Positions 50,369 to 61,787 of a stretch of DNA of 64,000 nucleotides are shown one piece after another. Made by a program: the position numbers and the translations under genes. Position 1 is the stretch's first letter. Each line of letters starts with the position of its first letter. This DNA comes from a virus (taxonomy: Duplodnaviria; Heunggongvirae; Uroviricota; Caudoviricetes), in the IMG/VR virus record IMGVR_UViG_3300024268_000012. One strand, 5' to 3'. The notes beneath the pieces are model-generated. The model saw nothing but the letters and a program-made list of their open reading frames with translations, searched no databases and was not told the origin of the DNA.

Positions 50369-50724
50369 TTTAGTGGGAATTGTGACCAGGTATAACCCCT
50401 TTTCTCTTTCAAAATAATTTTTTTCCCGAAAGGGTGCCCGGAGGGTGAATGTTGAATGGATTTACATACCAGAAAAAAATACAAGAGTACTGCCAGCATC
50501 TGGAACGCTCGTCGGGGCGTGCATGGTCGGCACGCCCCGAGTTTGCGCAATAAACCTGTCATGCAACAAAAGCGTCGCGAATGCATTGAATGCATCATGT
50601 TAAGTGTTATCCTAAAACTTAATAAAAAAAATTGTAAAAACCTATTGACAAACGCGGTCAGTTGTAGTATACTATAATCACAGCAAGGGACAAGAGCCCA
50701 GCTGAAAGAAAGGAAGTAACTACA

Positions 50725-51003
50725 ATGATGACTGCTGAAATGCTGATGACCATGCTGGAAACCCTCGAACAGGCTGGCGATGTTGAAATCCGTCGCGAAT
50801 CCGACACTGAAATCTGTGTGGATTTCATCGACTTCATCGGCTTCGATGATGACTGGTGTGAGCAGTTCCGTGACTATACCATGCCTGAGCTGGTTGAGCA
50901 GGTGCAGGACATCATCGACGAGCTGGGCACTGGTGACTTCTACCATGAAGTGGTGCTTGATGGTGTGGGCTTCATGTTCGGTTGTACCTCTTACGACATC
51001 TAA
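50725..51003 (+). CDS. Small acidic hypothetical protein (92 aa)
   Basis: Own promoter (50645), SD GAAAGGAAG, TAA stop. Confidence 0.75.
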   Translation: MMTAEMLMTMLETLEQAGDVEIRRESDTEICVDFIDFIGFDDDWCEQFRDYTMPELVEQVQDIIDELGTGDFYHEVVLDGVGFMFGCTSYDI

Positions 51004-51151
51004 GAGGTCACCGAGCACGGGCCTAGCTAGCCAACAAACAAGAGACACAACAAATAATTAACAAAAATAATCTGTATAAACCTATTGACAAACATCCTGA
51101 AACCTGCTATAATAGGTAGTGTCAAGGGAACAACGAAAGGAGATCAAAGCA

Positions 51152-51460
51152 ATGTTTATCCTCATGAAGTATTCGAAGGTAGAAAGTACTCGCACTCGCA
51201 CCGCCGCACACAGAGTAGGTCTGTTCCGCACTCGCAAAGGTGCAAACAGAGTGATGGCAAGGCTTCTGGAAGCAGAAAAAAAGAAGCCTGTACCTGCCAC
51301 TTTCAAGGTGGAACATGAGTGCTATTACAGTACCCGCGCATTCTGGGATGCTGTTGCACAGATGTACTGGGGTTGGCAGGATCGCCGCTATGCCAAACTG
51401 TTGGCGAAGTTCGACCGCATCCAGCAGAAGCTCGAAGCCATGAGGAGGGCAAGAGGATGA
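51152..51460 (+). CDS. Small basic hypothetical protein (102 aa)
   Basis: Own promoter (51085); ATG after GAAAGGAG. Confidence 0.7.
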   Translation: MFILMKYSKVESTRTRTAAHRVGLFRTRKGANRVMARLLEAEKKKPVPATFKVEHECYYSTRAFWDAVAQMYWGWQDRRYAKLLAKFDRIQQKLEAMRRARG

Positions 51461-51579
51461 ACAGCGCAAGGTTTAAGAAGCTCGTCAAGAGGAAAGAAAA
51501 GCAAGTCTATGCACAGAGGAGGGAAGAGCGATCTTCCCCCTCGAAAAAAAAGATAAAAAAGTTTGCGGAAAAGGCTTGA
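51457..51579 (+). CDS. Short basic peptide (40 aa)
   Basis: ATGA overlap with the previous gene; ends at the TGA inside the next TTGACA box. Confidence 0.4.
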   Translation: MNSARFKKLVKRKEKQVYAQRREERSSPSKKKIKKFAEKA

Positions 51580-51645
51580 CAAATACCCTAAGACGTGCTA
51601 TACTAATAGTGTCGAAAGGGACAAGACAAAACACAGAAAGAGGTA

Positions 51646-52089
51646 ATGAGAATGAAGATCTGGTTCGATATGGATGGTACGATTGCTGACCTGTATGCGG
51701 TTGATGGATGGCTTCAGATGCTCCGAGCTTACGACCCTGCACCCTACGCAATGGCAAAGCCCATGCACCACATGGCAACGCTGGCAAGGATGCTCAACAG
51801 GGCACAGGCACAGGGACACGAACTCTGCATCATCAGCTGGTGTAGCAAGGAAAGCACTCTTGCCTATGATGAAGCAGTCCGAGCCGCCAAGCTCGCATGG
51901 CTCGCCAAGCATCTGCCTTCTGTTCATTGGGATGTGGTGGAGATCGTTCCCTATGGGCAGAACAAGTGGGACACCTGCAAGAGCGGCATTCTCTTCGATG
52001 ATGAAGAGCGCAACCGCAACGCATGGGAACAGGGCAAGGCGTTCACTCCCGAAACTATCTTCGCCACTCTCTCTGCACTCACTCGCTGA
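51646..52089 (+). CDS. HAD-family 5'(3')-deoxyribonucleotidase-like phosphatase (147 aa)
   Basis: IWFDMDGTIAD motif I and ILFDD motif IV; own promoter (51576). Confidence 0.75.
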   Translation: MRMKIWFDMDGTIADLYAVDGWLQMLRAYDPAPYAMAKPMHHMATLARMLNRAQAQGHELCIISWCSKESTLAYDEAVRAAKLAWLAKHLPSVHWDVVEIVPYGQNKWDTCKSGILFDDEERNRNAWEQGKAFTPETIFATLSALTR

Positions 52090-52118
52090 GTGCAGAGAGC
52101 AACAAGAAAGAGAGGTAA

Positions 52119-52358
52119 ATGACTATGGGATTCAGTTATAATAGTTATAATAGTGATAACTCTGGATGCGCGACTGTGATTGCGGCGCTGATTGTGCTGG
52201 CGCTGGTCATCTTCGCTGGGCCATGGGTTGTGCAGATGGGATACAATGCAGTAAAGCTGGACTTCAACCTGCCTGACCTGAACTACTGGCAGTTCTTCTG
52301 GGCTACCAATGCATTGCAGGTTATCTTCAAGACCAATGTTTCCAGTAAGAGCAAGTGA
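52119..52358 (+). CDS. Small membrane protein (79 aa)
   Basis: SD GAGAGG; hydrophobic ATVIAALIVLALVIFAGPW helix. Confidence 0.65.
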   Translation: MTMGFSYNSYNSDNSGCATVIAALIVLALVIFAGPWVVQMGYNAVKLDFNLPDLNYWQFFWATNALQVIFKTNVSSKSK

Positions 52359-59415: not shown

Positions 59416-59515
59416 TGTCAGGTGAGGGAAGCAACTGACAGTCGCTTAGCCAAGGTAGCCTGCGGAGTGGGTGCGCAACACTCCATGGTTAGACCCTGTG
59501 CAAGCGAAGCGAAAA
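59416..59515 (+). ncRNA. Candidate small structured RNA (ORF-less cassette)
   Basis: Between promoters 59382 and 59534 with no SD-led ORF. Nested pairings TCGCTT/AAGCGA, TAGCCA/TGGTTA and GGAGTG/CACTCC. Confidence 0.45.
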
Positions 59516-59607
59516 AAAAGTTTGCGAAACCCCTTGACAAACAACTGAATAGGTGCTATAATAAGAGTGTCCTAAGGGACAAGACAAAAAGAAAGAGGTA
59601 ATGAATC

Positions 59608-60015
59608 ATGATGAAGTTCACTAAGAAGGTTGCTCTGGAAGTCGCTATCAATGCTATCGAGAACTCCACCCTGCCCAACTGGTCTTTCACTGAGGGCGAG
59701 GAAACCCTGACCATCTCCAAAGCGGAAGCCATCGAGAAGCTCCAGAAGATGATTGAGCAGTTGGAGGCTAAGTCCAACGCTCCCAAGAAGCCCACTAAGG
59801 TGCAGGAAGCCAACGAGGGTGTCAAGGACATCATCAAGGCTGTGCTGGAAGGTCAGTCCCCCATGACTGTCTCCGAAATCATGACCCACTCTGCGGAACT
59901 GAGTGCCCTGTCCAACCAGAAGGTCGCCTCTCTGGTGCGCCAGATGGTCGAGGCTGGCGTGCTGGTTCGCACTGAGGAAAAGCGCAAGGCTTTCTTCGCC
60001 CTCGCTCAGGGCTGA
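59608..60015 (+). CDS. Winged-helix DNA-binding protein, paralogue 3 (135 aa)
   Basis: LSNQKVASLVRQMVEAGVLVRTEEKRKAFF; followed by terminator GAGACCCC-GAAA-GGGGTCTC-TTTTT. Confidence 0.75.
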   Translation: MMKFTKKVALEVAINAIENSTLPNWSFTEGEETLTISKAEAIEKLQKMIEQLEAKSNAPKKPTKVQEANEGVKDIIKAVLEGQSPMTVSEIMTHSAELSALSNQKVASLVRQMVEAGVLVRTEEKRKAFFALAQG

Positions 60016-60192
60016 GCCTGAGACCCCGAAAGGGGTCTCTTTTTCTTGGGCTGCTCGCGGACGGGCGCCGCGAGCAGTTTTCCGCGATACACTAGACCCA
60101 CCGAAAAATTTTCTTGAAAAATCGGCATTTTAGGGGTTGACAGATTATCCCGAATCTGATATAATAGAACCATCGAAAGGAGCTGATCTGAA

Positions 60193-60333
60193 ATGTTCAC
60201 CTGTCCTGCACTCTGTATCCTTGGTCTGGTTCTCTCTATGTGGGGATTCATCTGGGGTATCTTCTTCCAGGAATTCCTGTGGCTGTGTGTAGCTGGTTTT
60301 GCGCTGGGCTGGATGTTTTCTAAAGATTGTTGA
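60193..60333 (+). CDS. Small two-helix membrane peptide (46 aa)
   Basis: Own promoter (60137), SD GAAAGGAG. MFTCPALCILGLVLSMWGFIWGIFFQEFLWLCVAGFALGWMFSKDC; below the track length cutoff. Confidence 0.65.
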   Translation: MFTCPALCILGLVLSMWGFIWGIFFQEFLWLCVAGFALGWMFSKDC

Positions 60334-60396
60334 AATTAGGGGTTGACAAACTGCCCCAACTGTGTTATAATAATAATGTCGAAAGGAGCTGATAGC

Positions 60397-60870
60397 ATGG
60401 AGTTCAAGGAAGCTATCAAGGCTTACGCTAAAATGATGGGCGTAAGCGAATCGGAAGCGAAGCAGGATGCCGAAGCTACCATCAAAATGTGGATGACCAC
60501 CGAAGGCATGACAAGGGAATTTGCGGAAGCCAGCTGGATTGAAGAGCAGGAAGATGCAGACCCCGAATTGCTGAAACAGATGGAAAAGCAGGCGAAGGAA
60601 TCTGGCGCAACAAAGGTCAAGGCAAAGCGTGCCCCGAATTACAGTCTGGAAGGACAGAAAAAGCGGGAACGCAAGCCCAACGAAGAAAAGCGTTCACTGA
60701 TTGAACAAATCGCCAATGCAATGGAAAGTTTTCATCACATGGATGAAGAAATTCCTGCTTCTGGTGTGGATTTGGTCGAAATTGTGAATCCTGAACGAGA
60801 AATCACCTTCAAAATTGGTGAAAATTGCTACAGTGTGACCCTTACCTGCCATCGCAAGCCGAAAAAATGA
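60397..60870 (+). CDS. Hypothetical protein, RERKPNE family copy 2 (157 aa)
   Basis: ATG after GAAAGGAG; shares RERKPNE.KR.L and VNPER...F..G..YSVTLT.HR.PK with 53585. Confidence 0.75.
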   Translation: MEFKEAIKAYAKMMGVSESEAKQDAEATIKMWMTTEGMTREFAEASWIEEQEDADPELLKQMEKQAKESGATKVKAKRAPNYSLEGQKKRERKPNEEKRSLIEQIANAMESFHHMDEEIPASGVDLVEIVNPEREITFKIGENCYSVTLTCHRKPKK

Positions 60871-61787
60871 CAAAATGGGCGAGAAATCGCCCATTTTTTG
60901 CTGTTTTTGTCCGGTTTTGTGCGGTTTTACTAGAAAAATCGCATAATTTTTGTTGATTTTGCCTATTGACAAATGCGGCGGGCTGTGGTATAATAATAGA
61001 GGGGAGTTGAGCGGGCCGGTCGCGGGCGATCCGGACCGAATTTCCCGATCGGACCTGTATATGCAAATTTTTCTCTTGAATGCAACTATATGCAACTAAT
61101 TACCTTGAATCCCGAAACCCCGGTCGGGCCCCGCCGATCGGATAACCGATCGGCTATCATATGCGCTCGTGCGCGGTGAAAGCGATTCCTCCAGCGCCTC
61201 ACAAATCAATTCTCTCTGCCCCTCAGCGTAGATCGAACATACCCCGCGCGTTCTCTGGAACATGCATATGCTGCGGAATTTGACAAATTGAATTAAATAT
61301 GATATAATATTTAAAAAAGGCACCTCCGCCGACCGGGAAATTGACAACATAATTTTTTTATGATATAATAAAAGTAGAAGGATATAGGCCGACCGGAAAG
61401 TCGGCAACAAGAGGAAGGAGATTTGACAAATAAACAAATATATGATATAATACGGTGGGGCATATTTTTACCGATCGGTAATAGATCAAGAGGAGCAAGA
61501 GTAAAGAATAGCAAGTGGACGGGCTGGCATATGCGGCATAATATATTGAACTTAATTACGGACACGAGGACGGATAAATGAGTAGAGTAGTCTAGGCCCG
61601 ATCGGGCCACCCCACTTCCAGAATTTTCCCAGTTTTTACAATTTTATCTATCCTCATCTTCTCTCCCTTGATTTTTATAAAAAAATTTGCTATAATATAT
61701 ATGTAAAGAATGAGGGAATCGCTTCGCTCTTCCCTCTATCCAATCCTGGGGTCGCTCCCCAGTGAATATCGAAAGGAGACTCCTTAC

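Follow-up and report, generated by a model that had tools for sequence, protein, structure and literature searches.

Promoter-early stem-loop (PeSL) cassettes are known from the T4-like phages RB49/phi1, T4/PST and KVP40/nt-1 (PMC2839356; PMC4122927), and the model proposed for them is general homologous recombination between short regulatory repeats of the same direction, with no dedicated recombinase (PMC2839356). The host-takeover module of phage SPO1, whose products shut down macromolecular synthesis in the host, consists of 26 small early genes, arranged in operons within the terminal redundancy (PMC6873191). In recoded gut phages, late structural genes use TAG as a sense codon and early genes are predicted to be readable in the standard code (bioRxiv 10.1101/2021.08.26.457843; PMC10607447). 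Here we compare with these systems an array of host-type promoters and small genes found in a 64-kb window (the whole stretch of DNA analysed, to which all positions refer) of IMG/VR record IMGVR_UViG_3300024268_000012, from an uncultured gut phage (168,738 bp, linear, 88% complete, no end repeat seen). We regard it as probable that the array is the early-gene block of a TAG-recoded Bacillota phage, shuffled at its promoter modules by general homologous recombination; the block is a hyperplastic (fast-changing) part of the genome. A first-pass annotation of the sequence had proposed the PeSL cassettes and the SPO1 module as analogues, and these are the right ones. PeSL is the nearest known system: four of its defining features recur here, in a different taxon.

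The window contains 22 perfect TTGACA-N17-TATAAT promoters, against 0.06 +/- 0.24 in 100 dinucleotide shuffles. All but one lie at 51085-61451 (19 on the + strand, 2 on the - strand), and since the full record has 29, these 21 form a cluster within about 10 kb. When up to one mismatch is allowed, 28 promoters (21 perfect, 7 single-mismatch; 26 on the + strand, 2 on the - strand) are found at 50645-61451; a weaker scan adds one further site, at 59261. The first-pass annotation had described about 24 units at 50600-60900, one promoter per 400 bp or so. That promoter-array observation is confirmed: the interval holds 15 perfect + strand promoters, 7 matching at 11 of 12 positions, one at 10 of 12 and two perfect - strand promoters, spaced at about one per 410 bp. 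The block starts at 50645 and continues for about 550 bp after the 60900 given there, through four additional perfect promoters (60966, 61280, 61341 and 61423). PeSLs are likewise repeated consensus housekeeping promoters.

Downstream of the promoters are 21 + strand genes of 40-218 amino acids (aa) with strong ribosome sites, plus several promoter units without an open reading frame (ORF), and the coding fraction of the array is 69%. The position of stop codons relative to the next -35 box ranges from an overlap of 4 nt to a gap of about 120 nt; two genes take as their stop the TGA inside the TTGACA of the next promoter. Two perfect promoters (52798 and 57307, - strand) face backwards. An independent gene caller, applied to a contig from another sample with an identical exonuclease protein, returned the same gene list. 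This supports the idea that the block is a collection of small genes, mostly orphans, with a host-type promoter for each.

The promoters belong to a module of about 80 nt, which consists of an A-tract/TT/A-tract upstream element, TTGACAAAC, a C-rich spacer, TGTGnTATAAT, an A-rich start region and a purine-rich leader with a strong ribosome site. The consensus of the window modules is aAAaAAagTt..aaAAA.c.. TTGACA AAc..ccc.a..TgTG. TATAAT Aa..a..tc.AAaGGg. The purine tract (GAAAGG, AAGGG or AGGAG) lies 12-18 nt downstream of the -10 box. A repeat search of the window recovers the modules as families of 60-80 nt with 60-82% identity, which together with the consensus bears out the shared promoter flanks reported earlier; the reported repeats are also present, as an identical 32-mer at 56901 and 58872 and, at the ribosome site, an identical 23-mer at 50706 and 55404. 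The upstream A-tract/TT/A-tract matches a full UP-element layout and corresponds to the AT-rich upstream region of PeSLs; we rejected it as a palindromic operator in favour of an UP-type promoter element. Most units have TG ahead of the -10 box, and a TRTG "-16" motif is reportedly typical of Gram-positive promoters. In this extended -10, of Gram-positive host type, the modules differ from PeSLs.

Secondary structure is a further difference. A strong hairpin (z < -2.5) lies at the -35 box or directly ahead of it in no more than about 9 of 24 units, and a hairpin plus T run resembling a terminator ends only about 6 cassettes. The -35 box of a PeSL lies downstream of its terminator, whereas in 4-5 of the roughly 9 hairpin units here GGGG/CCCC arms enclose the box and place it in the loop. 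The module also continues into a conserved leader and ribosome site, and some of the crossovers lie in that part. A 5'-terminal leader hairpin that presents the purine tract on co-varying arms is seen in about 10 of 26 leaders, so a universal leader hairpin was rejected, the purine tract being the constant feature. A fixed operator TGTC-N6-GACA was also rejected, as the arm spacing varies (6, 7, 13 or 22 nt). In relatives the purine tract is in most cases simply the ribosome site; many leaders in this phage are longer and have a second ribosome site, so the first tract may be a relic or an mRNA stabiliser of the kind said to be provided by STAB-SD sequences.

Relatives were retrieved with a profile of the three winged-helix (wHTH) paralogs of the array, which gave 62 IMG/VR loci (cited below by L numbers) on contigs of up to about 200 kb, with one of 402 kb. 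They have 5-34 perfect promoters on the gene strand, almost all having 15-34, and 0-6 on the other. Their 973 unique modules follow the same plan, upstream A-tracts included, with lineage-specific spacers and leaders and with Shine-Dalgarno-like words peaking 12-21 nt past the -10 box. The layout is therefore a property of the whole clade. A nucleotide search of 50,697 phage records gave no relative and no match to any cultured phage, and exact-protein look-ups returned the same strain only, or no match. The carriers of PeSLs are T4-like myoviruses; this phage is unrelated to them, with TAG-recoded late genes and a 3791-aa ORF, and its portal and terminase match PHROGs that have no T4 annotation.

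Cassette turnover was quantified in 12 close relatives of one another (80-97% nucleotide identity), with positions -60 to +90 counted as near a promoter. Of their 392 homology breakpoints, 76% are near a promoter, versus 34% for random positions; in PeSL phages, too, the motif marks the limits of the indels and replacements that distinguish relatives. Of about 20 distinct simple indels, most run from promoter to promoter, the left end 28-75 nt past a -35 box and the right end 10-20 nt ahead of the next. Alignments overlap at these junctions by 50-89 bp, the signature of a direct repeat; over the relatives more widely, most simple indels show overlaps of 30-89 bp. For example, a 658-bp unit of L004 is missing from L006, where the left module is fused to the right gene; read base by base, this chimeric junction switches in the common stretch of ribosome-binding site (RBS) and ATG. 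Indels from promoter to promoter are also found in four further sub-lineages, with groups B and E the clearest cases, and in group F at least 30 bp of junction homology is found in only 2 of 5 indels. Among non-homologous replacements, about half of the ends lie at about +60 and -15 of the flanking promoters.

Turnover is also seen in the lineage of the window. What lies downstream of the exonuclease gene differs three ways, between L064, L065/L066 and the window. The window has the 58909 cassette there, L064 lacks it, L070 has it in strongly diverged form, and L065 and L066 have another promoter and gene in its place. Shared genes are permuted in L001 and in L035, never inverted. A rough count gives 484 cassette families in 25 lineages, of which 384 (about 79%) belong to a single lineage and about 7 are core, the core proteins being conserved across 14-25 lineages; PeSLs, too, occur beside small orphan genes where the genome is hyperplastic. 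Among relatives, cassettes are thus found to have been gained, lost, replaced and reordered, with breakpoints at the promoter repeats, as the first-pass annotation had anticipated. Two outcomes named beforehand as fatal to the idea, a collinear invariant gene order and breakpoints off the repeats, were both looked for and neither occurred.

The favoured mechanism is as follows. The array would comprise about 26 one-gene units, with modules fitted to draw as much as possible on the housekeeping RNA polymerase of the host. After injection, host polymerase and ribosomes would express some 21 small proteins at once and independently. Because the modules are all in the same direction, they could act as portable homology, and homologous recombination between them would delete, duplicate, replace and reorder promoter-to-promoter cassettes. 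The enzyme may be a phage Sak4-like protein or host RecA: the record encodes a Sak4-like AAA_24 protein, and no RecA, RecT or Erf was found in it. Nor was any tyrosine or serine recombinase (integrase or resolvase) found in the 168,738 bp of this 88% complete record, in searches whose positive controls matched (PF00589, none). With no integrase in the record, shuffling is better ascribed to general homologous recombination, as invoked for PeSLs, than to an integron-like system.

Several observations weigh against the favoured reading, or limit how far it reaches. In at least eight further samples, contigs with an identical exonuclease protein keep the gene neighbourhood unchanged, and over the 7.5 kb compared as DNA, for a single contig, identity to the window is 100%, so shuffling must be slow at strain level. 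Contigs that encode identical proteins turn up in about 40 blocks of the public collection. The relatives in the breakpoint test have wHTH proteins about 54% identical to those of the window and do not represent this array itself, whose own-lineage close relatives are only short metagenome contigs of 1-2 kb. In group D most indels lie away from promoters and many have no junction homology. The window modules are only 60-82% identical, with a longest exact match of 32 nt, and would be a poor recombination substrate. Intergenic DNA is nearly all module, and selection against breaks within genes would also put breakpoints there. Finally, the early timing is predicted from promoter type.

The strongest competing explanation draws on the same points. 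It holds that the promoters are alike through selection to the polymerase consensus, that rearrangement is by illegitimate recombination, and that the repeats play no mechanistic part; any surviving breakpoint would then fall in the modules because they are essentially the only intergenic space, and the moderate module identity and the group D indels would be expected. We consider it unlikely, as most simple indels are whole promoter periods with 30-89 bp of alignment overlap and the L006 junction is a chimeric module, both of which favour a mechanistic role for the repeats. Moreover, spacer and leader positions that do not contact polymerase are conserved by lineage, two units share the exact 32-mer, and a second promoter family, homogenised separately, is present in the same genome (below).

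Two further explanations are very improbable. Cassette mobility might be driven by homing endonucleases, given the HNH/DUF2726-type gene at 49550-50368 and the T5orf172 gene at 52930-53499, both of families known as mobile nuclease or nuclease-associated domains and both patchy among relatives; such genes would explain their own spread, but not some 20 indels at modules in relatives without adjacent copies. To much the same slight degree, the array could be mainly a decoy, its dozens of maximal promoters titrating host RNA polymerase and its ORFs secondary. The extreme strength and density of the promoters, the several ORF-less units and the stacking of promoters in threes would fit, but coding sequence with strong ribosome sites makes up 69% of the array, the core proteins are conserved across lineages, and some 30 sites per genome copy are few beside the number of host promoters. 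Least credible of all is an integron-like, site-specific system, in which a dedicated recombinase would use the promoter repeat to take up and release cassettes: all that favours it is a layout resembling cassettes and the excised mini-circles reported to form between neighbouring PeSL repeats (PMC2839356), and against it stand the lack of a recombinase in the 88% complete record, a promoter for each cassette, and crossover points that vary within the module (RBS/ATG in some, upstream of the -35 box in others).

The integron analogy of the first-pass annotation therefore fails in the strict sense, the repeat being a promoter and not a folded site of the attC type, and its interpretation as a whole is partly supported. 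Like a mobile integron (IntI, attI/attC, Pc), the array is an ordered, one-direction series of small exchangeable cassettes; unlike one, it lies in a record without integrase and has neither attC nor a common Pc.

The array also resembles the SPO1 host-takeover module. Both are blocks of about 12 kb in a large Bacillota phage, with about 25 small genes (early in SPO1, predicted to be so here), strong sigma-A promoters and ribosome sites (here judged by sequence) and many products without known function. The SPO1 genes form operons, however, where the array has nearly one promoter per gene, and the SPO1 module lies in a terminal redundancy, where the 88% complete record shows no terminal repeat. 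PHROG and Pfam searches gave no sequence relationship between the two, and the likeness to the SPO1 module may best be taken as one of function. Many clade contigs stop within the array, probably through assembly breaks caused by the repeats. One such contig, L014 (IMGVR_UViG_3300045988_154609), was examined: its two ends join within a promoter-RBS module, and positions 1-14 at the contig end resemble Illumina adapter sequence. For these contig ends, assembly breaks are a simpler reading than an SPO1-style terminal redundancy.

The genetic code divides the window. From 1 to 48.7 kb the - strand genes, which include the portal, the terminase and the 3791-aa ORF, require TAG to be read as glutamine; 16 late genes have 100 in-frame TAG in 12,760 codons, and 15 of the 16 stop at TAA. 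By contrast, the 25 + strand genes at 48862-62393 (21 of them array genes) have no in-frame TAG and no TAG stop, as had been noted before, and end in TGA (22) or TAA (3). They would therefore be read the same way before and after an amber suppressor tRNA appears, and the block fits the "early, standard-code" class of recoded phages. Glutamine codons flip as well, from 82% CAG in the array to 79% CAA (of CAA+CAG) in the late genes, and G+C content is 46-50% in the array versus 33-39% in the late region. This contrast in composition suggests adaptation of the early genes to the host's translation and of the late genes to tRNAs that the phage itself encodes.

A phage sigma factor (47667-48737, - strand; phrog_5767, E 1.7e-50) is encoded by the gene that opens the late - strand block. 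With an 11/12 host-type promoter at 48755-48783 (- strand), divergent from the array, and two TAG codons in frame, this gene looks like a timer that would be transcribed early and completed only once TAG suppression begins. A second promoter family, class B, has 27 copies of TTGAWW, an AT-rich spacer ending in AAAAAATTTGA, TATAAT and then ATATATGTAAGGTTGAGAGAGG, of which two are in the window (48802 and 61668) and 25 more in G000, mostly at 64-119 kb in window orientation. Class B promoters flank the array and head genes across the next 55 kb or so. As this family is tightly conserved beside the array promoters (class A), the genome holds two separately homogenised promoter modules. A homing-endonuclease-like gene (49550-50368; phrog_559, phrog_9084; HNH/DUF2726-type), patchy among relatives, lies between the left class B promoter and the array.

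The features of the array and its flanks, as predicted from promoter scans and gene calls, are listed from left to right.

48802-48830 (+): class B promoter, left flank; drives 48862-50368, including the homing endonuclease gene
50645-60994 (+): core array, 24 class A modules on the + strand and 21 small genes
50645-50673 (+): promoter, 11/12; drives 50725-51003
50725-51003 (+): 92-aa orphan gene
51085-51113 (+): perfect promoter
51152-51579 (+): 102-aa and 40-aa genes; the stop of the 40-aa gene is the TGA of the next -35 box
51576-51604 (+): promoter, 11/12; 5' leader hairpin UGUC/GACA
51652-52089 (+): NT5C-like 5'-nucleotidase, present in 54 of the 62 IMG/VR loci
52125-52358 (+): 77-aa membrane protein, then terminator 52364-52397
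52770-52798 (-): perfect promoter, back to back with 52844; drives an ORF-less structured RNA (predicted)
52844-52872 (+): perfect promoter, 7-bp leader hairpin
52930-53499 (+): T5orf172-domain protein
53531-53559 (+): perfect promoter; an upstream inverted copy pairs with the -35 box
53585-53989 (+): famB paralog 1, 134 aa
54041-54069 (+): promoter, 11/12
54141-54509 (+): wHTH paralog 1
54557-54585 (+): perfect promoter, 13-bp hairpin ahead
54631-54888 (+): 85-aa gene, homologs limited to L001, L035 and L036
55007-55035 (+): perfect promoter
55086-55337 (+): 83-aa gene, phrog_5321 (function unknown)
55357-55385 (+): perfect promoter; 12-bp hairpin with the -35 box in the loop
55423-55761 (+): 112-aa gene; its stop is the TGA of the next -35 box
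55758-55786 (+): perfect promoter; hairpin loop holds the -35 box
55815-55988 (+): 57-aa ORF, reads through promoter 55915-55943
55915-55943 (+): promoter, 11/12
55985-56299 (+): 104-aa gene
56335-56363 (+): perfect promoter
56396-56869 (+): 157-aa membrane-anchored protein; L035 copy 87.5% identical
56878-56906 (+): perfect promoter; identical 32-mer leader in common with promoter 58849
56931-57209 (+): AbrB/MazE-fold protein; terminator hairpin 57203-57224, then T run
57279-57307 (-): perfect promoter with TTTGTGCA box, no ORF
57356-57615 (+): three stacked promoters (57356, 57466, 57587), no convincing ORF, upstream of wHTH paralog 2
57697-58050 (+): wHTH paralog 2
58111-58139 (+): perfect promoter
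58184-58840 (+): DEDDh (DnaQ/RNase T-like) 3'-5' exonuclease
58849-58877 (+): perfect promoter
58909-59145 (+): 78-aa cassette, terminator 59138-59163
59261-59562 (+): three stacked promoters (59261, 59382, 59534), upstream of wHTH paralog 3
59608-60015 (+): wHTH paralog 3, then terminator 60020-60039
60137-60165 (+): perfect promoter; drives a 46-aa membrane peptide (60193-60333)
60343-60371 (+): perfect promoter
60397-60870 (+): famB paralog 2, then terminator 60872-60897
60966-61075 (+): final class A promoter and conserved hairpin unit, no ORF
61280-61451 (+): three stacked AT-rich perfect promoters in a non-coding stretch of CCGATCGG/CATATGC palindromes
61668-61696 (+): class B promoter, right flank; drives 61788-62393

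Most array products have no Pfam or PHROG match. Those assigned to families are the NT5C-like nucleotidase, the T5orf172 protein, the AbrB/MazE-fold protein, the DEDDh exonuclease and the three wHTH paralogs. The exonuclease motifs DxE, NxxFD and Hx4D are invariant in 26 homologs; a search of PDB sequences gave no match, and the structural model (predicted local distance difference test score, pLDDT, 92) resembles RNase T, TREX and DinG-exonuclease folds. The wHTH paralogs are 50-60% identical to each other, and in their model (pLDDT 93) the C-terminal 62 residues resemble the wings of ArsR, MarR and Fur; the loci hold 155 wHTH copies. The two famB paralogs of the window belong to a family without known function, for which an Atlas search gave no match. 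A winged-helix gene followed by a famB gene is a recurring pair, found 2-3 times per array in nearly every lineage (window 53585-54509 and 59608-60870; L001, L009, L021, L035 and L052).

Triplets of stacked promoters precede two of the wHTH genes, and the whole segment of about 750 bp is duplicated, 59261-59562 being the copy of 57356-57615. A 44-aa ORF at 57409-57543 was dropped, as its apparent conservation is that of a translated promoter module. One promoter sub-class has a TTTGTGCA (or TTTGTTGA) box and TTGCC immediately upstream of the -35 box. Its sites are 57279-57384, 59240-59289 and 60945-60994, two of which have TAGACA as the -35 box. These promoters head ORF-less units beside winged-helix genes, and the box is kept in L064 and L070; it may be an operator for the winged-helix proteins.

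Two non-coding stretches stand out. Downstream of the backward promoter 52798, 52400-52763 (- strand) is a GC-rich stretch of about 400 nt without an ORF, whose RNA has a fold z-score of -2.7 and about 160 nt of which are 81% conserved in L035 and L036. It has no Rfam match, and the Rfam search overall gave nothing at the gathering threshold and nothing credible at E <= 1. At 60966-61620 there are seven copies of CCGATCGG or CCGACCGG palindromes, about six of CATATGC and four perfect promoters. The first 110 nt or so from 60966 have 70-80% nucleotide identity in 26 loci whose proteins are only 30-60% identical, and the hairpin that follows promoter 60966 (CGGGCCG..CGGCCCG) shows compensatory changes across loci. 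The stretch may be a small RNA, an origin or a hub for regulator binding.

A bolder extension of the favoured reading, that the module is a selected exchange device through which a clade of 100-200 kb Bacillota phages shares an open early-gene library, possibly with excised circles, is speculative and we hold it to be rather doubtful, if less so than any of the competing explanations above. If true, winged-helix, famB, exonuclease and nucleotidase genes would be the fixed core of a shared library of about 480 families, of which 79% are lineage-specific; as the cassettes are TAG-free, any of them would work on either side of the phage's code switch.

The word "promoter" is absent from the main texts of the papers on recoded gut phages (bioRxiv 10.1101/2021.08.26.457843; PMC10607447, phAss-1 group), whereas here a standard-code block is physically defined by about 28 host-consensus promoters. 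The array would thus give a physical definition to the "early, standard-code" gene set postulated for stop-codon-recoded gut phages. Promoter-repeat cassette shuffling, known from T4-like coliphages, would extend to an unrelated and abundant clade of uncultured Bacillota phages. The array also offers a compact catalogue of candidate genes for host takeover and anti-defence, and its modules are near-ideal Gram-positive expression signals. As the design itself was already known from T4-like phages, the main value of the promoters lies in marking which genes of a recoded clade would be made before the code switch.

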